Of a stretch of DNA of 64,000 nt, positions 1,877 to 56,034 are shown piece after piece. The notes under the pieces were generated by a model that had not been told where the DNA came from, searched no databases, and saw only the letters and a program-made list of their open reading frames with translations. Numbering within the stretch: the stretch's first letter is position 1; every line of letters starts with the position of its first letter. The stretch is from Enterobacteria phage KhF3: the sequence record KT184315.1; one strand, 5' to 3'. A program made the translations under genes and the position numbers.

Positions 1877-3478
1877 TCAACGTCTAAGCCCCTCATACGG
1901 GTTTCCTCTCACTAAATCTGTGTGAGCACCCATTGATGGTGGCTTGAATAATTTAACTTCGTTAAGACTGTTGAAAGCATCACTGGTAGCATCCACTTGG
2001 TCATCTTTAGTTTTGCCGTCACCACAAAAACCTTCAAGTTCTTGAAAGTAAGCTTCATTCCAACTACCTCTCAAGACTTTTACAAGTCCAGCTTCAGAAG
2101 CAGCAGAAAATCCCGCAAAGCGGGTAACTTTATCTTTATTTGTTGGTTTGGCTCTTGCTCGATAACCTTTCTCGGCAAGTTTCCTGATTAGGGATGTTGC
2201 GTAGGATTTACCAGCAGCGCCTGGGTCTTGAGGGATAAAAATACCAGTTCGCTTACCGTCACTTTCAGCAGTCAAATTAATTTGTGTTTCGACTCCAGAG
2301 GGTCTATCTCTAAATCTTACTACATCAATGATATAATAGCAACCGTCTTTTTTAGATTTACCCATCTTAACACCTGCTGTCCAGTCTGGATTAGGGTTAA
2401 TCTCAGATGGTAAAGTTGCTGCTAAGTCCCATGCTCTAACATCGAATACATCTTCTGGGAGTGAATCAACAATCTCACACCATTGTCTTTGCCAATAGTT
2501 TGAACCTTCTGCACGAGCCTTCCAGTTACCGAAACGAAGTCTTGCAACGTTTACAGGGGTGTTGTTTTCCAACTTACCACGGTACTTAGGCTCTAAGAAG
2601 TCAAGGATTGGGTTATCATCAATCGTACCAGAGATGAATGTATATGTTTGAGGAATCTCAAGAGGAAACATTTCAAGAATCTTGTCTCTCTCCCAATCAG
2701 AAACCATAACACCATCATTCATTACATACCAACGAATACGACCACACTTTTCAGGGTCTGGGTAGCCTTCTTCATCTAAGAATGGTTCTACCCAATCGTA
2801 AATAAAGTGGTCTCTGTCTGGGTTCATAGAAATCTTCATGTATGAATCACCTTCAGCCCCAGAACGTAGACGAGTCTGTAGGTATGAAATCTGTGAAGCA
2901 GAGAAGTGTGTACCTTCGTCAAAGTAAATAGCTGAGTATTCAATACCCTGATGACCTTCAGCGTGCTTTTCAAGTTCTAGATAGGTAAACTTGATAGTTG
3001 CCCCAGAAGGGAATGTGATAGTCATCTTCTGCTCGTGAGGAACCCCACCAAACTTACCAAATAGTTTCTTTGCAGCAGGCCATAAACCACCTTGTAACTG
3101 TGTTGTATTTCGACGGAAATATACAGCATTATAGTTAGGGTCTTCAATAAACCTTAAAGAGTCCATTAACAATGCAGCAGTCTTACCAGCACCCGCAGCA
3201 CCACCATAGAGAACCAAGTCAGCATTAGTATTTAAAAAGACCTCTTGAGAACCCGGCTGAGGGGCTACATAGTTCTTATCAGTCATCAATTTGAAGATAA
3301 GTCTAACTTGGTCTGGTGTGTATCTTAATAAAGTCAGAATTTGAGTTGGAAGGAATTTAGAGGGGTCTTTACCGAATGATTTGATAATTTCTTTTACTTC
3401 ATCAGAAAGCCCCAACTCTCCAGCTAGGACTTTCCTAACATCTTCCACTCGCTTCTGCTTAACAGCATTTAAGTCCAT
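1877..3478 (-). CDS. terL: terminase large subunit
   Basis: Walker A-like GGAAGAGKT near N-terminus, size about 530 aa; ATG 3476-3478 with GGAGGTG RBS (track start 3493 is TTG). Confidence 0.8.
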   Translation of the reverse strand: MDLNAVKQKRVEDVRKVLAGELGLSDEVKEIIKSFGKDPSKFLPTQILTLLRYTPDQVRLIFKLMTDKNYVAPQPGSQEVFLNTNADLVLYGGAAGAGKTAALLMDSLRFIEDPNYNAVYFRRNTTQLQGGLWPAAKKLFGKFGGVPHEQKMTITFPSGATIKFTYLELEKHAEGHQGIEYSAIYFDEGTHFSASQISYLQTRLRSGAEGDSYMKISMNPDRDHFIYDWVEPFLDEEGYPDPEKCGRIRWYVMNDGVMVSDWERDKILEMFPLEIPQTYTFISGTIDDNPILDFLEPKYRGKLENNTPVNVARLRFGNWKARAEGSNYWQRQWCEIVDSLPEDVFDVRAWDLAATLPSEINPNPDWTAGVKMGKSKKDGCYYIIDVVRFRDRPSGVETQINLTAESDGKRTGIFIPQDPGAAGKSYATSLIRKLAEKGYRARAKPTNKDKVTRFAGFSAASEAGLVKVLRGSWNEAYFQELEGFCGDGKTKDDQVDATSDAFNSLNEVKLFKPPSMGAHTDLVRGNPYEGLRR

Positions 3479-3499
3479 TAAGCACCTCCGCAAATAGAA

Positions 3500-3700
3500 T
3501 TATTCAGAGTCTGTAGCAGTCTCTTCTTTCTTAACTTCGAACTTTGCATCAACAGCATCAAGAAGTGCATCCATAGATGCTTCTTTAATATCAATGCCTG
3601 TTGCTACAGATAATCTGTCTGCAATTGCCATGATAGTATTCTGCATAAATTCTAGCTTCTTGTTAGCTTCATAAAGTTCTTTATAAACGGTCTCGCTCAT
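3500..3700 (-). CDS. hypothetical small protein
   Basis: 66-aa ORF with GGAGAA RBS, upstream of terL. Confidence 0.4.
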   Translation of the reverse strand: MSETVYKELYEANKKLEFMQNTIMAIADRLSVATGIDIKEASMDALLDAVDAKFEVKKEETATDSE

Positions 3701-3736
3701 TATGTTTTCTCCAAATAATTAACCATGTTTCCCCTT

Positions 3737-3760
3737 AAAAAAGACGGCACAGAGACCGTC
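3737..3760 (-). terminator. rho-independent terminator-like hairpin
   Basis: Minus-sense GACGG-loop-CCGTC followed by T6. Confidence 0.5.
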
Positions 3761-3922
3761 AAGGAGAAACCACAATGTACGTCAGAGACATACTGTATAA
3801 GTCTTCTTATAAAGTATAGCTCTGTAAAAAAGCCCTGTCTAAAAATACTCTTCGGTAGCGAAAGGAAGAATACTTATAGCAGGGCATTATTATTATTTTA
3901 ATTGAGAGAGAGTAAAATAACT

Positions 3923-3998
3923 TGGAGAATCCGAAGGGACTCGAACCCTTATAAACCTGTTTTGCAGACAGGAACATAGCCATTTCTGTCACGGATTC
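3923..3998 (-). tRNA. tRNA-Cys (anticodon GCA)
   Basis: Manual cloverleaf on reverse complement: 7-bp acceptor, T-loop, anticodon loop CTGCAAA, CCA encoded. Confidence 0.7.
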
Positions 3999-4002
3999 AA
4001 AT

Positions 4003-4095
4003 TGGAGGAAGATACCAGACTTGAACTGGTACACCGATTTCTCAGCTACTGGCAGTTTAGCAAACTGCTCCCTTACCTTTTAGGGTTAATCTTCC
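4003..4095 (-). tRNA. tRNA-Ser (anticodon GCT), class II
   Basis: Acceptor GGAAGAT/ATCTTCC, anticodon stem GCAGT/ACTGC loop TTGCTAA, long variable arm. Confidence 0.7.
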
Positions 4096-4096
4096 A

Positions 4097-4831
4097 TTAT
4101 TTCTGTAATGCGTTCTTCATTTCTGGTGTTGCAATAGTGTCAATCACACCAGTTTTACAAGCATCATCAAACCAGTCTGGTAAGATACCTGCTAAGAACC
4201 CATTGATATTCGTTTTAAGGTACTCTGCAATAAGAGCAGCTTCTTCTTCAATCATCTGCACAACTTCATCTGCATAAGCTGTAATCTTCGAAATACCTTC
4301 ATTAATCTTACTAACAGCTTGGTTAGCTAAATCAGAAATAGTATCAAGACCTTTGTCAATAGCATCTTGTAAGTCACTTAATACATCATTAACGACATCT
4401 AGTGCACTGTTAATTGTGTCAATAGCTTTTTGACCATATTCTGTAGCAACGCCCATAATACCACTAAACGGTGTACAGCCAACTTGTTCCCCTGCTGCAC
4501 CCATAACATTGGAATACCCCTTTGCTACCTGCATACGTGATGAAAACTCATCAATAGACTTTTGACCATAGTCTGTTAAGGTCTTAGTAGTCGCTGTAGT
4601 GCTTGTAAGGCTTGTTGTAAAGCTGTTTAGAAGGACTGTTGTAAGTCCAGCAGCAACAAGTTTCTCCTTCATTGTAGGGTCTGTTACAGAGCTAATAGAA
4701 CTTACAAGTGATGTAGAGGCAGCTACGGTTCCACCGAGAACTGCTGCACCAGTAATAAGGGGATTAGAAAACCCTCTACCGGTTTTTAAGAGATTAAAAA
4801 TCTCCTTACCTTGTTCTGTCATCTCTTTCAT
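4097..4831 (-). CDS. hypothetical Ser/Thr-rich protein
   Basis: Track ORF 4097..4894 uses GTG inside tRNA-Phe; in-frame ATG at 4829-4831 with AAAGGTG RBS avoids the overlap. Confidence 0.5.
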   Translation of the reverse strand: MKEMTEQGKEIFNLLKTGRGFSNPLITGAAVLGGTVAASTSLVSSISSVTDPTMKEKLVAAGLTTVLLNSFTTSLTSTTATTKTLTDYGQKSIDEFSSRMQVAKGYSNVMGAAGEQVGCTPFSGIMGVATEYGQKAIDTINSALDVVNDVLSDLQDAIDKGLDTISDLANQAVSKINEGISKITAYADEVVQMIEEEAALIAEYLKTNINGFLAGILPDWFDDACKTGVIDTIATPEMKNALQK

Positions 4832-4847
4832 TAAGCACCTTTGTAAT

Positions 4848-4924
4848 TGGTAGTCCAGTGGGATTTGAACCCTCTTCTCATGTTTTTCAGACACGCGCTT
4901 TAACCATATAAGCTACTTGGACTA
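4848..4924 (-). tRNA. tRNA-Phe (anticodon GAA)
   Basis: Acceptor TAGTCCA/TGGACTA, anticodon loop CTGAAAA; D-arm imperfect. Confidence 0.6.
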
Positions 4925-4929
4925 TAAAT

Positions 4930-5005
4930 TGGGGTGACCTACGGGATTTGAACCCGTATAGACCATGTTCACAGCATGGGTCATTACCATTTATGATAAG
5001 GCCAC
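4930..5005 (-). tRNA. tRNA-His (anticodon GTG)
   Basis: Anticodon stem CCATG/CATGG loop CTGTGAA; CCA encoded. Confidence 0.7.
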
Positions 5006-5036
5006 ATTTAAGGACTCTCGTAAGAATCCTTAGAAG

Positions 5037-5112
5037 TGGCAGCGGCATAAGGATTTGAACCTTAATAGGACAGCTTCAGAGACTGTTGCATTGCCAGTTA
5101 TGCTATACCGCT
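5037..5112 (-). tRNA. tRNA-Gln (anticodon CTG)
   Basis: Full cloverleaf, anticodon loop CTCTGAA. Confidence 0.7.
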
Positions 5113-5117
5113 AAATT

Positions 5118-5196
5118 TGGTACTCCATATCGGATTCGAACCGATACATAACACAGATTTTAAGTCTGGCCTCTCTGCCAATTGGAGTAATGGAGC
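5118..5196 (-). tRNA. tRNA with anticodon TAA (Leu by anticodon), short variable arm
   Basis: Acceptor GCTCCAT/ATGGAGT, T-arm ATCGG-TTCGAAT-CCGAT, anticodon loop CTTAAAA, discriminator A, 76 nt without CCA. Confidence 0.55.
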
Positions 5197-5198
5197 AT

Positions 5199-5274
5199 TG
5201 GCGGGGGATGTTGGAATTGAACCAACTTCTTCGATTTCAAAGACCGAGGTTTTAACCTTGTAAACTAATCCCCT
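5199..5274 (-). tRNA. tRNA-Gln (anticodon TTG)
   Basis: Anticodon stem TCGGT/ATCGA loop CTTTGAA; position 1-72 mismatch. Confidence 0.7.
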
Positions 5275-5282
5275 TTAAATCT

Positions 5283-5840
5283 TTACTTTCTCAGTGGATG
5301 AATAAAGAATGCCAACATAACTCTTTCCCTTGAGAATGCTCTTTCTTCTGGGACAACACTTTTTAGTTTCCATCCAATATAAATTCTCCAGTAAAACTGT
5401 TTACCAAAGACTTTAATTGATGGGATAAAGGCGAATAATCCCCAAGCATTACTGTTCCACATTAGGAGATAACCAGTCTGATTATCTTCAGGGTCAGAAC
5501 TTACGTTGATATTACCTTTCCACTTAGTAACATCTTTTACATCTCTTCCTAATACATGGTAAGAGAAGTTATAAGCTTTGTTTCTCCAGAGCCATCCGAC
5601 TCTTTGCATGTAGACGCCTAGTTTACCAATCCATCTAATATTAGCCCATCTTTTAACGTGACCTTCATCACCATCAATTGGGTTGTCATATGTCTCCATC
5701 CATCTGAACCCGAAAGGTAAGTGTCCTTTCTTCTCACTGTAGAATGGAACTACAAAAGGTGCTAAGATAACTGCTAAGATTGCTGCAAATGGTTCTAACA
5801 AAGCTAAGAAAATCCATGAAGCATACTTTAAGTATCTCAT
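5283..5840 (-). CDS. hypothetical membrane protein
   Basis: 185-aa ORF with hydrophobic N-terminus, between tRNA blocks. Confidence 0.5.
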   Translation of the reverse strand: MRYLKYASWIFLALLEPFAAILAVILAPFVVPFYSEKKGHLPFGFRWMETYDNPIDGDEGHVKRWANIRWIGKLGVYMQRVGWLWRNKAYNFSYHVLGRDVKDVTKWKGNINVSSDPEDNQTGYLLMWNSNAWGLFAFIPSIKVFGKQFYWRIYIGWKLKSVVPEERAFSRERVMLAFFIHPLRK

Positions 5841-6079
5841 TGTCTAATCCTCGTAAGGAGGTAAATGTTATTATTCGTTTCTAAACCTTCTGGTAAAACT
5901 ATCTCAAAAATAACACTCTTCAGATGTCTACCACCAAAACAATCACGTATAAATCTTTCTACTCTAGCGGGGTCACATAAGTATCCCACTTTTAAGAAAA
6001 TGTGGTGTTCAACACCAATGACCCTGACAAACTCAATACTCTCACAGTTTTCATGTTCAACTACTGTTAATGTTTGCAT
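5837..6079 (-). CDS. hypothetical protein
   Basis: 80-aa ORF, stop overlaps downstream start. Confidence 0.4.
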   Translation of the reverse strand: MQTLTVVEHENCESIEFVRVIGVEHHIFLKVGYLCDPARVERFIRDCFGGRHLKSVIFEIVLPEGLETNNNIYLLTRIRQ

Positions 6080-6096
6080 AGTATCACCTTTTTATC

Positions 6097-6172
6097 TGGC
6101 GCAGGATAAGGGATTCGAACCCCTATTAACAGCTTCGTAGACTGTTGCTCTTTCCATTTGAACTAATCCTGC
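6097..6172 (-). tRNA. tRNA-Arg (anticodon ACG)
   Basis: Anticodon stem ACAGT/GCTGT loop CTACGAA. Confidence 0.7.
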
Positions 6173-6177
6173 AAAAT

Positions 6178-6255
6178 TGGTGTTCCAAGACGGATTCGAA
6201 CCGTCACTAATACAAGGTTTGAGCTTGCATCCTCTGCCAATTGGGATACTGGAAC
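6178..6255 (-). tRNA. tRNA with anticodon CAA (Leu by anticodon), short variable arm
   Basis: Acceptor GTTCCAG/TTGGAAC, anticodon stem GCAAG/CTTGT loop CTCAAAC, T-arm GACGG-TTCGAAT-CCGTC, discriminator A. Confidence 0.55.
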
Positions 6256-6256
6256 A

Positions 6257-6331
6257 TGGTACTCACTAAAGGACTTGAACCTTTTTCTTCATCTTGTAAG
6301 GGTGATGTTTTACCATATAAACTAAGCGAGT
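6257..6331 (-). tRNA. tRNA-Val (anticodon TAC)
   Basis: Anticodon loop CTTACAA, D-stem GTTT/AAAC, discriminator A. Confidence 0.65.
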
Positions 6332-6427
6332 ATGAAAGAGGTCTGGAGTTGTGCCGCTAACTCAACTCCGTGGAATTTGTTACGGTCTTCAGTTGACTCA
6401 AAGCGGTCTTTCACTTGACCTCTGAAT
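6332..6427 (-). other. structured spacer element (not a canonical tRNA)
   Basis: No T-loop; ends pair GAGGTC/GACCTC; internal 7-bp hairpin GGAGTTG/CAACTCC; contains GAAGACCGT motif shared with other spacers. Confidence 0.3.
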
Positions 6428-6503
6428 TGGTGCTCCCACAAGGACTCGAACCCTGATAAGTTGCTTACAAGGCAACCGTAATAACCAATTATACGATAGG
6501 AGC
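6428..6503 (-). tRNA. tRNA-Thr (anticodon TGT)
   Basis: Anticodon stem GTTGC/GCAAC loop CTTGTAA. Confidence 0.7.
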
Positions 6504-6510
6504 ATTAATT

Positions 6511-6585
6511 TGGAGCATCCAGAGGGAATCGAACCCTCAACCTCAGTTTGGAAGACTGTAATTTTCCCGTTTAAACTATGGATGC
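6511..6585 (-). tRNA. tRNA-Gly (anticodon TCC)
   Basis: Anticodon loop CTTCCAA, discriminator T. Confidence 0.65.
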
Positions 6586-6591
6586 ACTAAT

Positions 6592-6667
6592 TGGTGGAGT
6601 CACCGAGAATTGAACTCGGTTCCCAAGTTTGCAAAACTCGAATTTTAACCATATAAACTATGACCCC
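6592..6667 (-). tRNA. tRNA-Ala (anticodon TGC)
   Basis: Anticodon loop TTTGCAA; G3-U70 pair in acceptor stem. Confidence 0.7.
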
Positions 6668-6673
6668 ATTGTT

Positions 6674-6749
6674 TGGTACAGGTGGAGGGAATTGAACCCA
6701 TCGTCTTACTGATTAAGAGTCAGCCGCATAACCATTTTGCTACACCTGC
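6674..6749 (-). tRNA. tRNA-Lys (anticodon CTT)
   Basis: Acceptor and anticodon arm fold, but T-stem is only 3 GC pairs. Confidence 0.5.
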
Positions 6750-6756
6750 ATTAATT

Positions 6757-6833
6757 TGGTACACCTAGAGAGATTCGAACTCACACTGAGCAGATTCTAA
6801 GTCTGCTGCCTCTACCAGTTGGGCTATAGGTGC
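6757..6833 (-). tRNA. tRNA with anticodon TAG (Leu by anticodon), short variable arm
   Basis: Acceptor GCACCTA/TAGGTGT, anticodon stem GCAGA/TCTGC loop CTTAGAA, 5-nt variable loop, 74 nt without CCA. Confidence 0.55.
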
Positions 6834-7086
6834 ATTAAATCTTTTTAGAGAACTTCTAAGAACCTAAGCAACAAGGCTCCACAACAAGCTGTAATAACCT
6901 TAGAAGCCCTCTAAAAAGACCTAAATAGGTCTTTGCATAGTCTTGTTTAATCCGGTGACTAGAACCTTTGGAGAGCTTGATATTATCTCTTCTCCGTGAC
7001 ACCTACTAGGTGCTTTGACAGTGTACGACAATACACGAGGGATAAACCGACAATGCGAACAAGCATGGACGGAGTAAATCTTATTA

Positions 7087-7176
7087 GGCGGTAAGTAAAG
7101 GAGTCGAACCCTCACCGTATCTCTACAGTGGCAACTGTTTTCAAGACAGTTTGGCTACCATTAGCCGCTACCTACC
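7087..7176 (-). tRNA. tRNA-Ser (anticodon TGA), class II
   Basis: Acceptor GGTAGGT/ACTTACC, anticodon stem ACTGT/ACAGT loop CTTGAAA, long variable arm. Confidence 0.55.
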
Positions 7177-7189
7177 CCTAATAAGACTT

Positions 7190-7272
7190 TGGCATGGGAC
7201 GGAGGAGTTGAACCCCTTTGAAACGGTTTTGGAGGCCGTTGCTCATGCCTTAGAGTCTTAACATCGTCCCAT
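7190..7272 (-). tRNA. tRNA-Trp (anticodon CCA)
   Basis: Acceptor ATGGGAC/GTCCCAT, anticodon loop CTCCAAA; D region longer than usual. Confidence 0.5.
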
Positions 7273-7414
7273 ATTATAATTCGAAGCTTACCCTGTTATC
7301 TCAACACTGTCAAGCTTCTTCTCAGATTATTTACATGTTCTGGAAAACATGAGATACAGACCACCTCCCTACAGGAAGACCCGCTAAGGCCGTCTAAGTA
7401 ATCTGCTAACTATT

Positions 7415-7491
7415 TGGTACACCCTACAGGATTCGAACCTGTAACTAACGATTTAGAAGACCGTTGCTCTATCCAATTGAACTAAGGGTGC
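7415..7491 (-). tRNA. tRNA-Arg (anticodon TCT)
   Basis: Anticodon stem ACGGT/ATCGT loop CTTCTAA. Confidence 0.7.
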
Positions 7492-7737
7492 ATTATCTTT
7501 AAAGACTCTCTTAGAAAGCCCTTAAAGATGCCCACCTTATTAATCATACCGTGGGCGAGTACGCCAAATTCTTTGATGAGGGATTGGAAGACCTCACTGG
7601 TGTTTAGCCTATCAAGCTACTGCCAGAAAAACATTGTCGTTTGCATTTATTTTAAATTTGCAAAATAGACGCTACGCAACGAAAACTAAGGTTACTATAA
7701 AGTAGTCACATCTCAATGTCAACAACTTTATTGAAAT

Positions 7738-7813
7738 TGGTACTGGTAGGTGGAATCGAACCACCGATGTTCCCTTATCAGGGGAGTGTTATAACCTTCT
7801 TAACTATACCAGC
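7738..7813 (-). tRNA. tRNA-Ile (anticodon GAT)
   Basis: Anticodon loop CTGATAA, T-stem GGTGG/CCACC. Confidence 0.65.
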
Positions 7814-7814
7814 T

Positions 7815-7891
7815 TGGAGGTTCAGATGGGAATCGAACCCACATTCATAGGGCTTATGAGACCCTTGCATTACCTTATCTGCGACTGAACC
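7815..7891 (-). tRNA. tRNA-Met (anticodon CAT), elongator-like
   Basis: Acceptor GGTTCAG/CTGAACC fully paired, anticodon loop CTCATAA. Confidence 0.65.
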
Positions 7892-7969
7892 AGAATAAGT
7901 ACCCTAGTTAGAGAAACTGTTGAGTGGGTGTTTCCAGCCGCGCAGGTGTTTCTCAGTTAAGGGTGAATT

Positions 7970-8045
7970 TGGTAGAAGTGGAGGGATTCGAACCCATCGC
8001 CTGTCAGATTAAAAGTCTGCCGCATCACCATTCTGCTACACTTCC
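7970..8045 (-). tRNA. tRNA-Lys (anticodon TTT)
   Basis: Anticodon loop CTTTTAA; T-stem weak, same T-arm sequence as the CTT copy. Confidence 0.55.
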
Positions 8046-8050
8046 ATTAA

Positions 8051-8192
8051 ATTATCTTTGTAGATAAGCTACCCAGACTTGCTTAAGGTCTGTAGCGATG
8101 TGCCTTTTTGGGTTTAAATCTAGAATTTACCCTTTCACCCTTTGTGGTCGCATACTCACAGGTAAGCTTAATAACTTATCTACAAAGATAAT
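8051..8192. repeat. perfect 17-bp inverted repeat flanking about 108 bp
   Basis: ATTATCTTTGTAGATAA at 8051-8067 and its exact reverse complement at 8176-8192. Confidence 0.8.
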
Positions 8193-8194
8193 TA

Positions 8195-8326
8195 CCAGAC
8201 CGTTGTTTATCATCTTAAGTGCTACCATTACACCAACTCGACATCTGCCGAGTGAAGGAATCGAACCTTCGCCTTTTCTTTACCGGAGAAATAGATTGTT
8301 TAAGTTTTGCTGTAAACGGTCTTCTG
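8195..8326 (-). ncRNA. candidate structured small RNA with tRNA-like module
   Basis: Closing stem CCAGACCG / CGGTCTTCTG; inside, T-arm GAAGG-TTCGATT-CCTTC followed by an ACTCGGC/GTCGAGT hairpin and a D-arm-like GTGTAATGGTAGCAC; order is not that of a canonical tRNA. Confidence 0.35.
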
Positions 8327-8339
8327 TAAAATTGTTGAG

Positions 8340-8418
8340 CCAGACCAAGTTTTATAAATTTTTTCAAAATTAAATTGGCTTGAAAATATCATACGTACTT
8401 GCTGAATTTGGTCTTCTG
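8340..8418 (-). other. inverted-repeat-bounded spacer element
   Basis: CCAGACCAAG ... TTGCTGAATTTGGTCTTCTG. Confidence 0.3.
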
Positions 8419-8505
8419 CTCCTTTAAAGAATACTCGTAAGAACTCTTTAAGGGAGGGGCTAAAATAGCCCTCTCAAACATCATTTTGAAATACTTATTA
8501 TAATT

Positions 8506-8583
8506 TGGCGGTTACGAAGGGATTTGAACCCTCATCATCTCCCGTGACAGGGGAGTATTTTAACCAGATTAAACTACATAACC
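8506..8583 (-). tRNA. tRNA-Asp (anticodon GTC)
   Basis: Anticodon stem CTCCC/GGGAG loop CTGTCAC, CCA encoded. Confidence 0.7.
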
Positions 8584-8589
8584 TTTATT

Positions 8590-8677
8590 TGGTGTGCCGT
8601 GTAGGAGTCGAACCTACCGAGTCTCAATGACAAGGGATTTACAGTCCCCACCGCTACCATCTACGGGATAACGACAC
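8590..8677 (-). tRNA. tRNA-Tyr (anticodon GTA), class II
   Basis: Anticodon loop CTGTAAA, long variable arm, T-stem GTAGG/CCTAC. Confidence 0.65.
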
Positions 8678-8686
8678 ATTTAAATT

Positions 8687-8763
8687 TGGCGGTTAGTCAG
8701 GGATTCGAACCCTGTGCCATTCGCTTAACAGGCGACCGCACATACCTTATGTGCTTCCTAACC
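8687..8763 (-). tRNA. tRNA-Asn (anticodon GTT)
   Basis: Anticodon loop CTGTTAA, T-arm CAGGG-TTCGAAT-CCCTG. Confidence 0.65.
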
Positions 8764-8774
8764 TTAATACATTG

Positions 8775-8834
8775 CCAGACCGTGTTTTTTCTTTTATCCG
8801 CAAAAAGTATTTTGTTGCTGAATACGGTCTTCTG
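8775..8834 (-). other. inverted-repeat-bounded spacer element
   Basis: CCAGACCG ... TTGCTGAATACGGTCTTCTG. Confidence 0.3.
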
Positions 8835-8840
8835 CAAAAT

Positions 8841-17570: not shown

Positions 17571-17623
17571 TAGCTTGAGGGGTTACTTGATAGCCCCTTT
17601 GTAGGAACTTAGAAGGTAGCGAA

Positions 17624-18046
17624 ATGAAAGAGCTTATTGGTAAAAGATTGACAGTTTACTGCTCTAAAACAAAGAAACCACTTACTTCTGTGAAGGTCTT
17701 TGATGTTGACACCACTGGTGTAGAGTACCCAATCCAATGCACAATAATTACTCCATTCCATGCAGATGATATGGATTTTAAAGAGTGTGAAGTGATATCT
17801 TTTAATGCTGATGGGTATTGGAGAGGTAAGTTAAACAAGCAATCAGAAGATTTTGATATGCAAATCCTTATCAATGAAGGCTATATCGGTGTAAAAGATA
17901 TCCTCGTAGAAGCCTATGAAGAAGGTATAATTGATATTGTGCATGATGTTGAAAAAGCTTTAAAGCTTGTTATGCCGCATTTAGAATCTGGAAAGCTGAC
18001 TTTAGAGATGCTTAATAGGGTTATTCGGAGAGCTTATGAAAATTAA
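17624..18046 (+). CDS. hypothetical protein
   Basis: 140-aa ORF. Confidence 0.5.
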   Translation: MKELIGKRLTVYCSKTKKPLTSVKVFDVDTTGVEYPIQCTIITPFHADDMDFKECEVISFNADGYWRGKLNKQSEDFDMQILINEGYIGVKDILVEAYEEGIIDIVHDVEKALKLVMPHLESGKLTLEMLNRVIRRAYEN

Positions 18047-18513: not shown

Positions 18514-19062
18514 ATGGAAAAAGATAACTTAAAAGAAGTTGAAGGTAACTACTTAGTACTTGACTGGAAGGATGTTCGGGAAGCACTCTCCGAAGAAAAT
18601 CTTGACTGGTTCGAACAAATTATCTTTGCAGTACGGCATAACCGAGAAGTTGAAAATGGTAAAGAGCCACTTGAAGGAATCTTTGTAGAAAGGTCTTATC
18701 CATTCTATGAAGACACTTTGCAGAAAGTTAAGATGTACTTTAAACAGAAGAACCGTAAAGTGGTCACTATGGTATCTCTTGGTGGACAGAGTATGTCTGT
18801 GATGGAAGATATCAACCCTAAGAGACCGAGTAAAGGTGTTTGTATAAAAATCACAGGACATGAAGAGTATATCTCAGTGGCTGACTTTAGTGCATTCTGT
18901 AGTGGTTCTTGTGTCTTTAATGGTTTTCACTATGATATCCGAGTGTACCCAATCAAGGGAGATGCTGTTATGATGCAGATATTCGATAACAATAATGGAT
19001 TTACTCATTTTTATCAGACAACTAAGTCATCCCTAAAAACAGTTCTGGAAACACTGATTTAA
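18514..19062 (+). CDS. hypothetical protein
   Basis: In-frame ATG at 18514 avoids 60-nt overlap of track start 18439. Confidence 0.5.
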   Translation: MEKDNLKEVEGNYLVLDWKDVREALSEENLDWFEQIIFAVRHNREVENGKEPLEGIFVERSYPFYEDTLQKVKMYFKQKNRKVVTMVSLGGQSMSVMEDINPKRPSKGVCIKITGHEEYISVADFSAFCSGSCVFNGFHYDIRVYPIKGDAVMMQIFDNNNGFTHFYQTTKSSLKTVLETLI

Positions 19063-19073
19063 AATATCTTAAG

Positions 19074-19100
19074 AGCCTCCTTAATTGGGGGCTTTTTATT
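19074..19100 (+). terminator. rho-independent terminator ending plus block
   Basis: AGCCTCC-TTAATT-GGGGGCT followed by TTTTATT. Confidence 0.7.
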
Positions 19101-20676
19101 GAGTAAAATTTACGAAATTTATATTTTTTATAAAATTTTATCGGTTGTTCCAACCTCTGGGTCACCATCATATGTGAACAAAATATCTATCCTTCTTAAC
19201 AGCCTTCTTAATCTTATTCTCTATATAGTTATATAGTACTATATAGTATCTTAGTAACTATCTAGTGGTCTTAATAGCCCTCTGTATAGCCCTTCTAAAT
19301 AGCCCTCTAAACACTCTTCTAACAAGCCTTCTTAACAACCTATACAATCACCTTAACCATCTCTCTACACTCTCTTAGAAGCTCCTATACACCTCTTAAT
19401 CTCTATGTCAGCTATGATACTCTCTATAGGTGTTCACTAGGTGCTACTAAGCCTCTATATAGACTGTTTTAACAAACTTAACAGGAATATCTTTACAGAC
19501 CTTATCTCACAAGGTCTAACACGGTACTAACAAGGTATCTTATAAGCCTGTTATTACCTGTATTTTAGAAAGACTGTATAGGTAATTATTCAGATTTTTA
19601 AAATTTTTATAAAATAGGACTATCAAGTCATTTTTTAGGGTCTTTGAAGGAACTGAAAAATATCTGTAGAAGATGTATATCTGCTTGGTAGCCCTTAACA
19701 TCCCTGTAACATCCCCTTTGCAAAATTTTAAAATATCCTTAACAATCTCTTAACAGTTCTCACATCTTCTTAATAACTCTTCAAAGTTCTTAACAGATTC
19801 TTAACAGAACTAACAAGGGCTTAACAGTTTTCTAACAAGTGCTGAATAGACTTTACAGAATCTTAACAGATTCCTAACAAGAGCTCAGTAGTTAAATGTT
19901 AAGAGTTATTTTGTTAAGATAATTAACAAGTTTCTAACAAGTGTTTAATCTTTTTAACAAGCTATTAACATGGTCACTACTCTTTTCTTATCGTTCCCTT
20001 TCCTTTCTTAGTGATTCCTTAAACATACCTCTTAAAAGCTCTGTATAGCTCTGTATAACCCCTTTTAAGCCTCTTCCTAGTAATTACACCCCAACTATAC
20101 AGATACCTCTTTATAGGGCTTTACAGGGGCTTTAAAGGCTATGTCAAAGGTTCTTACAAGGCTTTTACGTGGTTTTAACAGAGATTTAACAAGGGGCTAA
20201 CAAGTCTCTAACAAGTGCCTTAAAAGCATAACTATGTAGGGATTGTTAAGAAATTGTTAAGAAAATGTTAAGGGGGCTAGCATTTACGTAACTTTTAAGC
20301 AACTTTGAAGTAACTTTATAACCCCTATAACATACTTTTCAGTTACTATCAAGGGGCTTGTTTAGTAGTTCACAAGATAGCTAACGAGATAATAAAACTT
20401 ACACCCTTATAAGATTCTTTTAAGGTTCTAGGAAGCTTTATAAAGGGCTTTTTAGAGCAGGTTAATATGATTGCTTAAGTTAGGTTGATAAGGCTGTTAT
20501 AGAGCTTTATAGAGCGTTTTAGTGGTTGCCCTTCCCTTTCGGGTTATGGGCTTATATTTAAGTTGATTTGATAAGAAGATATAGAGTAGACTATAGAGTT
20601 ATTGCTTTTAAGGTCTGGTAAGATTCTAACTTGTTAGGGGAGTCTGGGAAGATTCTGGGAAGGGATTGGATAGACG
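19101..20676. repeat. 1.6-kb non-coding region dense in short direct repeats (YTAACAR, CTATAGAG families)
   Basis: No ORF over 60 aa; more than 20 copies of CTTAACAG / CTAACAAG / TTAACAAG-like octamers; lies between convergent terminators. Confidence 0.7.
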
Positions 20677-20702
20677 TAAAAAAGCCCCTATGAGAAGGAG
20701 CT
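20677..20702 (-). terminator. rho-independent terminator ending minus block
   Basis: Minus-sense AGCTCC ... GGGGCT hairpin followed by T6. Confidence 0.6.
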
Positions 20703-20740
20703 TTTCAGGTATCTGGGGCTAAATAGCCCCGTTGCGTCGA

Positions 20741-20989
20741 TTAGTTGTAACCTTGTTTGCTGTAGTATAGGGAGACGATTTTTTCTCCCCAGTAGTGGTA
20801 GTGATATTCCTCGTTTATGGCTTCTTTTACAGCGTCCTTCCAAAAGTCATCGGTAGGGTTATAATCTGGTAGCACCTGCTGAATCAGCATTTTGATAAGG
20901 TCAAAGGTGTTATCTGTTCCACCGATATCGAATTTTGCATCAAGTTCGTGGCAGCCATAAGCATTAACAGTTACGCGGATAGTTGACAT
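20741..20989 (-). CDS. early-region small hypothetical protein
   Basis: 82-aa ORF preceded by cassette with GGAG RBS. Confidence 0.5.
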   Translation of the reverse strand: MSTIRVTVNAYGCHELDAKFDIGGTDNTFDLIKMLIQQVLPDYNPTDDFWKDAVKEAINEEYHYHYWGEKIVSLYYSKQGYN

Positions 20990-22337: not shown

Positions 22338-22586
22338 TTATTTAACTTTCTTTGAGAAAATTAGTTTAACTGCAACCGTAGGAACCTCGTCAGCGATTGT
22401 AACCAGCATCACTTTTTGAGTGACCAACTTATAACCGTTCTTTGCAGCGTATGCGGTAAAACGGTTGACATTGTAACTATAAGTTTTTGGTGTGTTATCT
22501 GGCATGTGGTAAATGAAAGGTTTACCCAAATTTTCTTCTTGTGTCAATAATCTACAGGTATCGGGAATGTTAAAGTAGTTCATCAT
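22338..22586 (-). CDS. early-region small hypothetical protein
   Basis: 82-aa ORF flanked by cassettes. Confidence 0.5.
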   Translation of the reverse strand: MMNYFNIPDTCRLLTQEENLGKPFIYHMPDNTPKTYSYNVNRFTAYAAKNGYKLVTQKVMLVTIADEVPTVAVKLIFSKKVK

Positions 22587-22672
22587 TTTTAGAATCTCCA
22601 GTTTAGGATTTAGTGGTAAAGCTCTTTATCTGAGGCTTAAGTTATCAACTTTTAAGCCCCTTGTAAAGTACT

Positions 22673-24163: not shown

Positions 24164-24453
24164 GGTGTTTCCTCTTTACGTGATACTTTGCCATTTACAG
24201 ATATCTCATAAGATTCTAATAAATCGCTTTTAGACTTTACAGGACTTTTAAAAGTATCATCATAAATATTAACTTGCAATACAGGTTTTTTATACTCCCT
24301 GCAACTGTTCCATAAGCAAATCACTACACGACGGCCTTTGATTTTTCCGTGTAACCATTCCATAACATCATGACTATTCCTTGATGTTTCAATGAAATCA
24401 ATTTTATTAAGTAACTTGCTTAAATTTTCACGGACTTTATTTGATAATTTCAT
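24157..24453 (-). CDS. early-region small hypothetical protein
   Basis: 98-aa ORF. Confidence 0.5.
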   Translation of the reverse strand: MKLSNKVRENLSKLLNKIDFIETSRNSHDVMEWLHGKIKGRRVVICLWNSCREYKKPVLQVNIYDDTFKSPVKSKSDLLESYEISVNGKVSRKEETPC

Positions 24454-24545
24454 TTTAGAATCTCCTAGTTTAAGGGTTGATTTGAATAAAGCTCTTTATC
24501 TGGGGCTATCTTATCAGTCTGATAACCCCGTGTAAAGAAATCTAT

Positions 24546-25058
24546 TTAGTTCTTAAAGATATTCATCACTGAGTCTTTCAACGATTCCAAACGTTCTAAT
24601 ACTTCAGATTCTGCGTCTGCGTTGTTCACCTCTTCTTTTAGTCTATCCTCTAAATCATCGCCGTCACGATAGCACCAATCGAAAGCATAACCAAGATAAA
24701 AACTTTCTAAAACCGTGCTACCGTTTGCATCCACAACTTTCGCGGCAAGGTTATACTCTGAAGCCTCTAAATCTCTTTCTAGTTCTTTCTGTAAGCTCGT
24801 GTAAGCCTCTTTCGATGGATTCTCACGGCCTTGTTTTGCATAGTCACTTGAAAGCTGTTTAAGGCTGTAATGTAAAGGGATTGCATATTTAAATTCATTA
24901 CGCTGACAGTTAGGATTTTTAATCGTCACACCGCCTTGATGGTCATCTGTAAACTTCCAATTATCAAGATTATGGCTTGCTTCAAAGCAATTTACCGCTT
25001 CGTAAATAATGGTGAATTTTTCTTTTACAACTTCAAAGGTAGCGTCTACAGTTTTCAT
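24546..25058 (-). CDS. early-region hypothetical protein
   Basis: 170-aa ORF. Confidence 0.5.
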   Translation of the reverse strand: MKTVDATFEVVKEKFTIIYEAVNCFEASHNLDNWKFTDDHQGGVTIKNPNCQRNEFKYAIPLHYSLKQLSSDYAKQGRENPSKEAYTSLQKELERDLEASEYNLAAKVVDANGSTVLESFYLGYAFDWCYRDGDDLEDRLKEEVNNADAESEVLERLESLKDSVMNIFKN

Positions 25059-54809: not shown

Positions 54810-55610
54810 TTAGTGCAGTTGCTCAGCAGACTCTTTTTCAGCCATAGCTGAGATTTGCTTCACAAAATCATCACCAAAGTTAATGCGAAGCTTCTCTTCA
54901 ATGATTGAAGCACCAATGCTCACCAGAACATCATTGATTGCTTGCATACTAACACCACCAGTCATACTCTCAATGAACTCAATGCTTGTGCCCATCATCT
55001 GTGAAAGCTGGATTAGTGCAACGATATTCATCATCGTAGAGATGGCTGGAATCATCAATGCAACTTTCACCTGAAGTGGTTCTATGTCAGCTACAGAATC
55101 ATTTTTTACAGCTTCTTCCAAAGAATCTTTGGTTTGCTGGATAATCTCTTTGATTCGTGGGTTTAATTCCTCTACACCCCAATCAAGCTTTTCATATCGT
55201 GACAGCTTCTCTTCCATTCGCTTCTCAAGAACAGCCATAACAGCACTCGTTGATGAGATAAGCGTATCAATAATGAAATCAGTGTCCTTAGTCAGCAACA
55301 GTTCCTTATCTTCGTCTGACATCCTGATATAGTCATTCTTTTGCATTTCATAAAAAATGAACTCAGCAAGTGCATCAACACCAACCGCAATAGATGCCAG
55401 AGCAAGTGTAGTGTCTGTCAACATCATATTAACCTGTTCTGCAAAAGCACCGTTATCAGACTTGTCTTCAGGCAAGTTATAGCTTGCAGGCATAAACTGT
55501 TCTGTGTAGTTATTACCACGAAGAATCATAGCCATGCTTTCTACGGCATTGATTAAGAATGCTTCATCAACACCTTTCTCTTCAAGCATCTTTTCTACAT
55601 CGATATTCAT
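54810..55610 (-). CDS. hypothetical protein
   Basis: 266-aa ORF. Confidence 0.5.
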   Translation of the reverse strand: MNIDVEKMLEEKGVDEAFLINAVESMAMILRGNNYTEQFMPASYNLPEDKSDNGAFAEQVNMMLTDTTLALASIAVGVDALAEFIFYEMQKNDYIRMSDEDKELLLTKDTDFIIDTLISSTSAVMAVLEKRMEEKLSRYEKLDWGVEELNPRIKEIIQQTKDSLEEAVKNDSVADIEPLQVKVALMIPAISTMMNIVALIQLSQMMGTSIEFIESMTGGVSMQAINDVLVSIGASIIEEKLRINFGDDFVKQISAMAEKESAEQLH

Positions 55611-55611
55611 A

Positions 55612-56034
55612 TTATTTCTCTCTCAGTTGGTTAAGTTTCTTTCTAGAACATTTTAAGTTTTCAGATGAAGAAAAGTCAAGTGTCTTTTCAGAACGTGGAT
55701 AATAGTGCCTATCCCAAGAAGTTTCAACATCGTTAATCAGTGATGCTAGATTACACAGGTCTGTACCACTTTGCAACCTCTTTTTAAGAGAATCTAGTAA
55801 AGCAACTGTGTCTTTAGCTTTACGTCTCGCTGTAGCAACATCTTTCATATGCTCAAATACAGAGCATTTTAAGTCATCTTCATAGTCTTCAGACAACTCT
55901 ATTTCATGTTGTATATCAACCATTCTCCTGTGATGGTGAGCATATTCCCGTTGAGCAGCAATGTCAAGTTCTTCCAACTTCTGCAAAGCTCTAACAAAGT
56001 CAGCTATGTCTGGGTGAACAAACATTTTCTGCAT
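55612..56034 (-). CDS. hypothetical protein
   Basis: 140-aa ORF, first gene of minus block. Confidence 0.5.
   Translation of the reverse strand: MQKMFVHPDIADFVRALQKLEELDIAAQREYAHHHRRMVDIQHEIELSEDYEDDLKCSVFEHMKDVATARRKAKDTVALLDSLKKRLQSGTDLCNLASLINDVETSWDRHYYPRSEKTLDFSSSENLKCSRKKLNQLREK

Follow-up and report, generated by a model that had tools for sequence, protein, structure and literature searches.

Results

Gene Content and Boundaries of the Region

The DNA under study is a 64,000-nt stretch of the genome of Enterobacteria phage KhF3 (KT184315.1), referred to here in its entirety as the window, and the element in question is a repeat-dense, non-coding region of 1576 bp at positions 19101–20676. 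The window belongs to a Felixounavirus, and its best match is phage TH10 (95% identity). With the region as the query, 256 phage records were matched by megablast and 270 by blastn, and almost all of these are from Felixounavirus and other members of the Ounavirinae (hosts Escherichia, Salmonella, Shigella, Citrobacter, and Erwinia). By gene order, the region corresponds to the convergent gap between genes 23 and 24 of Felix O1 (PMC3185647). One record with an organism name starting with "Staphylococcus" also matches the region and is likely a mislabeled or contaminated entry.

The initial annotation, which was made from the sequence alone, had described the region as lacking a credible open reading frame (ORF) and as lying between convergent transcription units, with AT-rich stretches inside it and a terminator at either boundary. 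All of these claims were borne out. The longest ORF that overlaps 19101–20676 in any of the six frames encodes 53 amino acids. The ORFs on the plus strand end by 19062 and those on the minus strand lie from 20741 onward, and the annotated relatives are arranged in the same way. The GC content is 0.29–0.32 over most of the region, compared with about 0.38 for the window. Both terminators are hairpins followed by U-runs, with fold energies below those of shuffled sequences, and both of the neighboring transcription units stop at them. The Rho-independent terminator of the plus-strand unit was located at 19071–19100 (hairpin at about 19071–19096 plus the U-run, −15.2 kcal/mol, z = −2.8), and a terminator scan also matches 19077–19091. 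The terminator of the minus-strand unit was located at 20677–20728 (hairpin and U-run at about 20677–20706; fold of −28.5 kcal/mol, z = −5.0) and includes, as part of the same element, a second minus-strand hairpin, GGGGCTAAATAGCCCC, which precedes the terminator hairpin at 20713–20728.

The Genome Ends and the Direct Terminal Repeat

The region is, with high probability, the physical end of the phage chromosome in an assembly that was collapsed into a circle. The direct terminal repeat (DTR), 591 bp in length and present as a single copy, would be located at 19687–20277, where the ends of DTR-bearing relatives align. Escherichia phage Ro111lw has a repeat of 613 bp that is 100% identical at its two ends, and the outer ends of this genome correspond to positions 19687 and 20277 of the window. 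The repeat of 570 bp annotated at both ends of Citrobacter phage HP1, a Mooglevirus, has its outer ends at the same two positions. When the 591-bp DTR was used as the query, 5 of 60 evenly sampled records (ECP2307, Ro111lw, I14.1, E9, and SPJ41) were found to align over its full length, starting at record base 1, and to contain a second copy. A Kolesnikvirus contig from IMG/VR has an exact DTR of 444 bp with borders that are 2–4 nt from the homologous positions, and the opening point of the Erwinia phage Roscha1 record is 1 nt away from the right DTR border. Records from different laboratories and different genera therefore start and stop at the same homologous bases, as fixed ends would. A direct repeat is found at both ends of the homologues, and the window itself, as a collapsed assembly, has one copy.

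Published experiments on relatives are in agreement with this assignment. For UAB_Phi87, Bal31 digestion and run-off sequencing gave a DTR of 608 bp with non-cohesive ends, and heated restriction digests gave no sign of cohesive ends (PMC4837284). A DTR of 613 bp was determined for Ro111lw with PhageTerm (PMC6454146), and two Philippine isolates have been reported with direct terminal repeats (PMC11737134). The terminases of Felix O1-like phages cluster in a clade of the DTR type (PMC4837284). In the Felix O1 genome paper, "short terminal repeats" were only inferred, from a discrepancy in size, and the other repeats listed there are located elsewhere in the genome (PMC3185647). The border words described below delimit a DTR of 614 bp in the sequence of UAB_Phi87, from which the terminal SpeI fragments were predicted to be 4431 and 2751 bp; the reported Bal31-sensitive fragments are 4322 and 2819 bp.

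A packaging site had been one of three roles considered typical of such arrays in the initial annotation. That option is the one now favored, given that the termini and a DTR of ~590 bp map inside the region, although the identity of the region as a genome end had not been recognized.

Motif Arrays and Their Phasing

The claim of more than 20 copies of YTAACAR was confirmed by direct counting: there are 22 copies on the plus strand and 4 on the minus strand within the 1576 bp. On the plus strand the density is 13.96 per kb in the region, compared with 0.53 per kb in the other 62.4 kb, and with both strands combined, 26 of the 94 matches in the window are found within 2.5% of its length. The motifs were ranked in an unbiased k-mer comparison of observed and expected counts for the region, in which TAACA, TAACAAG, CTTAACA, and TATAG came out highest. 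The core TAACA occurs 27 times (2.3 expected), TAACAAG 11 times (0.16 expected), and CTTAACA 10 times (0.26 expected). TATAG is found in 13 copies (1.2 expected), TATAGAG in 4 (0.03 expected), and TAGCCCT in 4 (0.03 expected). The reported abundance of CTATAGAG-type words was upheld in part; the looser TATAG(AG) family is enriched, but the exact octamer CTATAGAG is present only once.

The spacing of the TAACA units is regular. Twelve of the 26 gaps between successive TAACA cores are exactly 11 nt, and the pairwise distances up to 130 nt have a period of about 10.3 bp (R = 0.60; the 99th percentile for random placement is 0.35). Since the TAACA distances cluster at multiples of about 10.3 bp, the units are on one face of the helix. 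The orientation is also ordered. The units are forward from the left DTR border, where the first two are found at +9 and +20 nt, through 20209, and are then inverted at 20244, 20255, and 20266, with the last inverted unit stopping 5 nt short of the right DTR border. The GC skew within the region tracks this change in motif orientation, being strongly negative up to about 20100 and positive beyond it.

The DTR contains the following arrays. The main forward array at 19693–19971 (plus strand) consists of 15 TAACA-core units of the forms CTTAACAG, CTAACAAG, and TTAACAAG (repeat families D1–D3) with a spacing of mostly 11 nt; it starts 9 nt inside the left border and is broken by an inverted pair at 19897 and 19912. 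Units of the forms CTKTATAG, CTTTAVAG, and CTTTTAAG (families D8, D9, D13, and D16) are found at 20029–20140 on the same strand, with a spacing of 10–11 nt. By their positions and gaps, four tandem forward units (TTTTAACAGAGATTTAACAAGGGGCTAACAAGTCTCTAACAAG) at 20172–20215 on the plus strand are spaced by exactly 11 nt. The three inverted units (TTGTTAAG, AAATTGTTAAG, and AAAATGTTAAG) at 20241–20277 on the minus strand have the same 11-nt spacing and are followed by GGGGC, which ends at the right DTR border.

The Non-Coding Arms and AT-Rich Blocks

The DTR is flanked by unique non-coding arms of about 590 bp on the left and 400 bp on the right. The arm at 19101–19686, which would adjoin the right-hand copy of the DTR in the virion, is a mosaic of short arrays: two copies of CTTCTTAAYAG (19192–19212), three of TATATAG (19221–19246), three of ATAGCCC (19270–19305), and TAACA units at 19320, 19333, 19470, 19479, 19517, and 19528. 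The GC skew in this arm is as low as −0.57. The arm at 20278–20676, which would adjoin the left-hand copy, contains four copies of TTTNNAGNAAC (20281–20322), five units of the CTTWTAAG type (20404–20456), three copies of TTATAGAGC (20493–20525), two of TATAGAGT (20576–20600), and two of TCTGGGAAG (20639–20662). Here the GC skew is positive, up to +0.44.

Two copies of an AT-rich block (repeat family D12) are found in the left arm, both on the plus strand. The first (GTAAAATTTACGAAATTTATATTTTTTATAAAAT) is at 19103–19136, and the second, about 70 bp before the left DTR border at 19582–19615, is kept across genera. Exact copies of TTTTTATAAAAT are confined to the first block and position 19604. 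The first block, just downstream of the plus-strand terminator (scored at 19093–19122), is missing or poorly aligned in most Felixounavirus loci (conservation of 0.39) and nearly invariant in Mooglevirus (Moogle and HP1) and Suspvirus (SUSP2), which is an odd contrast. Four plus-strand copies of the word (A/G)TAGCCCT are present; one copy is located exactly at the left DTR border (19689–19695), and the other three form the array at 19270–19305, 400 bp outside the DTR. These three copies may act as auxiliary or decoy sites for the factor, whichever it is, that recognizes the left border.

Conservation of the Region

All 21 related loci contain the region, with an identity of 87–95%, whereas the flanking genes are often absent and are aligned in as few as 5 of the 21. 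The adjacent protein of 82 amino acids falls to an identity of 57–60% in loci where the non-coding region is near 90%. Across genera (Moogle, HP1, and SUSP2), the overall identity is 75–79%, with long invariant blocks that include both DTR borders, the TATATAG triplet at 19221–19246, and an almost invariant segment at 20400–20620. The TAACA cores are 89% conserved across genera, compared with 77% for other positions, and 24–25 of 35 motif instances are kept, compared with 14.4 ± 2.9 for random 5-mers. The series of forward copies followed by the inverted triple at the right border is preserved in Moogle, HP1, and SUSP2, which represent Mooglevirus and Suspvirus. In Erwinia phage Roscha1, only about 127 nt can be aligned to the window, yet the same kind of arrays is found.

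The annotation of this region in the databases is sparse. Most GenBank records carry none there, and others, including Sl26 (2999–3962), UAB_Phi87, and LMP25, list "hypothetical proteins" of 30–45 amino acids at positions that vary by record. These are probably artifacts of gene calling.

Border Words and the Length of the Repeat

The words at the two DTR borders are conserved in four genera. With the border marked by a slash, they are GTATATCTGCTT/GGTAGCCCTTAACA on the left and TTAAGGGGGC/TAG on the right. The left outer word, GTATATCTGCTT, is directly outside the DTR at 19675–19686 (plus strand) and is a candidate for the flank at which the terminase recognizes or cleaves the DNA. It is unchanged across Felixounavirus, Mooglevirus, Suspvirus, and Kolesnikvirus and occurs as a single exact copy in the window, where 6 other matches with two mismatches are no more than are found in shuffled sequences. 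The word inside the left border is GGTAGCCCTTAACAT. The right border reads AATGTTAAGGGGGC/TAGC, and its reverse complement read inward is (CTA)GCCCCCTTAACAT; the minus-strand word GCCCCCTTAACAT mirrors GGTAGCCCTTAACAT. The two borders share TAGCCC(CC)TTAACAT in mirror orientation with an offset of 2 nt. In the Kolesnikvirus contig, the repeat starts with TTAGCC, and its far end on the other strand is TTAGTGGCC. The mirrored borders would fit a single nuclease complex that acts on opposite strands at the two borders, as a weak inference from the words themselves.

The DTR was delimited with the border words in 22 distinct genomes, and the lengths obtained were 570, 579–582, 591–592, 601–603, 613–614, 623, 633, 638, and 658 bp. 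These values fit a ladder with steps of 11 bp (R = 0.81; the 99.9th percentile for random lengths is 0.58), with the reservation that the 22 genomes are mutually related. Selection on the helical phase between the two cut sites would be consistent with this ladder but is not proven by it.

Other Features of the Window

When single strands of the two DTR borders were folded, the structures were no better than those of shuffled sequences. An Rfam scan of 18900–20900 (E ≤ 1) gave two matches, both over the terminators and far below the gathering score, with a best E of 0.2. A structured non-coding RNA gene was rejected on these grounds, with no Rfam family found and the border segments folding no better than shuffles.

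Over the window as a whole, the GC skew follows gene direction. Its sign also changes at about 11000 and at about 55500–56000, where transcription diverges, and these two points correspond to the divergent promoter regions 40/41 and 96/97 of Felix O1 (PMC3185647). On the minus strand at 3923–9170, 26 tRNA genes are clustered, as is typical of Felix O1-like phages; the cluster covers most amino acids and includes two tRNA-Met, two tRNA-Gln, and three tRNA-Leu genes. The gene blocks at 17600–18000, 22400–22600, and 24200–24800 are aligned in under half of the 21 related loci, and from these alignments the hot spots of gene turnover appear to adjoin the genome ends.

A scan of the sequence collection for three TTAACA words spaced by 11 nt returned Ounavirinae together with unrelated contigs in which the unit sequences are different. 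The IMG/VR contig IMGVR_UViG_3300013103_000024 (L052, 39.6 kb) has, in a gene-free gap at 6700–6960, four copies of GTGTTAAT facing seven copies of TTAACACA across an AT-rich spacer. Other TTAACA-core arrays were found in the unrelated viral contigs L119 (8520–8620), L063 (590–700), and L048 (14030–14200). The arrays of these unrelated contigs resemble origins or packaging sites belonging to other phages and were judged to be a separate matter.

Discussion

Proposed Role of the Region

The interpretation that we find rather likely is that this segment is a concatemer-junction and packaging region in the style of T7 in which the arrays bind a phage protein. That the arrays themselves serve packaging is a proposition with roughly equal weight on either side. 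In such a mechanism, the 1.6-kb region would be the junction between genome units in replicating concatemers. The phased 8-mer arrays (CTTAACAG, CTAACAAG, and the CTWTAVAG relatives) would contain the putative binding sites for a phage protein, which may be a small-terminase-like factor or another end-binding protein. Bound along one face of the DNA as a coat, the protein would form a nucleoprotein complex, and this complex would direct the terminase nuclease to GTATATCTGCTT/GG and TTAAGGGGGC/TAG as two fixed sites. Owing to the mirrored words immediately inside each border, nicking would occur on opposite strands at a distance of about 590 bp; strand-displacement synthesis, as has been proposed for T7, would subsequently duplicate the DTR.

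A number of observations weigh against this mechanism. The DTR borders of KhF3 itself are assigned by homology and not from its own sequencing reads. The SpeI end fragments predicted for UAB_Phi87 are off the published sizes by 109 and 68 bp. The word shared by the two borders is short and has the offset of 2 nt noted above, and for this reason the border symmetry is kept as a weak inference only. Slippage of the 11-nt units alone would give steps of 11 bp in the DTR length, even if helical phase were not selected for, and the 22 genomes are related to one another. Searches of ten flanking proteins against Pfam and PHROGs gave no DNA-binding or terminase candidate, with no Pfam domain found and all of the PHROG matches being to families of unknown function; the terminase genes are located outside the 64-kb window. 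Finally, the data would fit a role in packaging and roles in replication, recombination, or end protection alike.

A bolder form of the proposed mechanism can be considered, in which the phased arrays would be the track of an end-organizing nucleoprotein complex, a phage "telomere", with a putative protein that polymerizes along one face of the DNA. The complex would span the whole repeat and set both cut sites, such that the spacing between the nicks, and thus the DTR length, would be measured in helical turns. This would explain the DTR length steps of about 11 bp across the Ounavirinae and the mirror-image border words. We regard it as speculative and rather unlikely to be correct.

Alternative Explanations

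The initial annotation had also named a replication origin and a partition-like array as possible roles. In an origin, which may stand alone or share the region with the termini, the phased repeats would bind an initiator and the AT-rich blocks would melt. Direct repeats phased at about 10.3 bp are indeed found here with AT-rich blocks alongside (19103–19136, 19582–19640, and 19717–19736, with a GC content of 0.29–0.31), there is a local change in the sign of the GC skew near 20100–20200, and no origin has been described for the Felix O1 group in the literature examined (PMC3185647). However, no DnaA box (TTATCCACA) was found within one mismatch in 19101–20676, and no recognizable initiator gene is adjacent among the ten flanking proteins that were searched with Pfam and PHROGs. 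The repeat core of 8 nt, at 11-nt spacing and in several classes, differs from iterons of about 17–22 bp, and the change in skew falls where the motifs switch orientation, with the overall skew following gene direction. The region also coincides precisely with the genome ends, which already accounts for its conservation. Phased repeats beside AT-rich blocks would be compatible with an origin, which we consider improbable. The partition-like array has no support. A parS-like centromere array would be expected beside parA/parB-type genes on a stably maintained replicon, but no ParA/ParB-like domain was found in the ten flanking proteins, and published accounts of the relatives class them as virulent (PMC4837284, PMC6454146).

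To the same low degree of likelihood, the arrays may bind a host nucleoid protein, a virion protein, or an early phage protein that serves in protection from exonucleases, in the control of ejection (as proposed for the repeat-rich injection-stop segment in the terminal repeat of T5), or in DTR–DTR recombination into concatemers. The arrays are within a few hundred base pairs of both physical ends, their phasing on one face suggests wrapping or coating, no Chi site is present in the region, and Felixounavirus Bas63 is without a RecBCD inhibitor according to the Bas63 study. Set against this, no candidate protein and no known host-factor consensus could be recognized, and both adjacent transcription units point outward and are terminated, so that there are no early genes near the ends that would need staged entry. 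The TTAACA words match the −35 hexamer TTGACA at five of six positions and could attract host RNA polymerase, titrate it, or give rise to non-coding transcripts; several of the promoter-like matches in the scan do use TTAACA as the first hexamer. We think this very unlikely, as the 10 promoter-like sites are no excess over the 6.9 ± 2.5 found in shuffled sequences, most motif copies are without a −10 partner, no Rfam family was matched, and there is nothing expressible downstream between two flanks that are inward-facing terminators. The explanation to which we give the least credence is a functionless spacer of decayed genes or slippage-generated simple repeats that are tolerated between terminators. 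Indels in steps of 11 bp are the expected product of slippage of 11-nt units, but the region is universal and conserved at a coding-like level while the neighboring genes come and go, the motif cores are more conserved than the spacers, and the architecture of the arrays is kept in Roscha1, from a genus with almost no alignable sequence.

Comparison with Other Phage Termini

The closest known counterparts of the KhF3 region are the DTRs of Felix O1-like phages (608 bp in UAB_Phi87, 613 bp in Ro111lw, and 570 bp in HP1), in which the sequence is homologous and the border positions are the same. The reports on these phages give the length of the repeat only, and to this the region adds the arrays, the phasing, and the border words.

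The nearest analogue in design is T7, in which a terminal repeat of 160 bp with adjacent SRL and SRR arrays of CCTAAAG-type heptamers constitutes the concatemer junction; the repeat and the arrays were reportedly described by Dunn and Studier in 1983. Like T7, KhF3 would have a short, exact, and non-permuted DTR in non-coding DNA, with a word of 7–8 nt repeated a dozen or more times inside or beside the repeat. The terminal-repeat region of T7 is the junction that is processed during packaging, and the same role is proposed here for the KhF3 region. There is no sequence relationship between the two, however, and the KhF3 DTR is about four times longer and belongs to a phage of a myovirus type. 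Transcription converges on the KhF3 ends instead of starting there, and the KhF3 region has several motif classes and a strict phasing of 10.3–11 bp. To our knowledge, the function of the SRL and SRR arrays in T7 is itself not settled.

Short repeated words near a cut are also found in the terminase recognition arrays of other phages, such as the R-sites of lambda cosB, the pacL and pacR boxes of SPP1, and the pac site of P1, in which four and three hexamers flank the cut. In the KhF3 region, four forward and three inverted units are found within 105 bp of the right border. The ends in lambda, SPP1, and P1 are cohesive or headful-permuted rather than exact DTRs, and the KhF3 arrays extend over 1.6 kb. 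The long terminal repeat of T5 contains a repeat-rich, non-coding "injection stop" segment, and a non-coding, repeat-dense block tied to a terminal repeat is thus common to T5 and KhF3. Unlike the T5 repeat, which is about 10 kb, encodes the pre-early genes, and has reported DnaA boxes, the KhF3 DTR is 0.6 kb, free of genes, and without a DnaA box.

Implications for the Felix O1 Group

Earlier work had established that Felix O1-like phages have a DTR, at least as far as its length is concerned. In the searchable literature, no account was found of the 1.6-kb non-coding block or of the arrays, phasing, and border words within it, and searches for an origin or for transcriptomes of these phages likewise yielded DTR lengths only. 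Apparently undescribed are therefore the phasing of about 10.3 bp, the cross-genus conservation of the motifs, the 11-bp steps (approximately) in DTR length, and the border words. The PhageMaP study of Felixounavirus Bas63 scores intergenic insertions, and its text is silent on this region.

We know of no systems other than T7 and T3 for which the recognition, cutting, and duplication of short exact terminal repeats are understood even in outline. The Felix O1 group is large and is used therapeutically, and not even a small terminase is annotated for it. The ends at the DTR tell annotators where to open Felixounavirus genomes, and the identity of the region as a terminal repeat explains the assembly breaks and the spurious "hypothetical proteins" that are found there. 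With its precise ends, conserved border words, and phased array, the DNA can serve as a defined substrate in pull-down, footprinting, and packaging experiments, and the region is a cis-acting block that engineered phages must retain.

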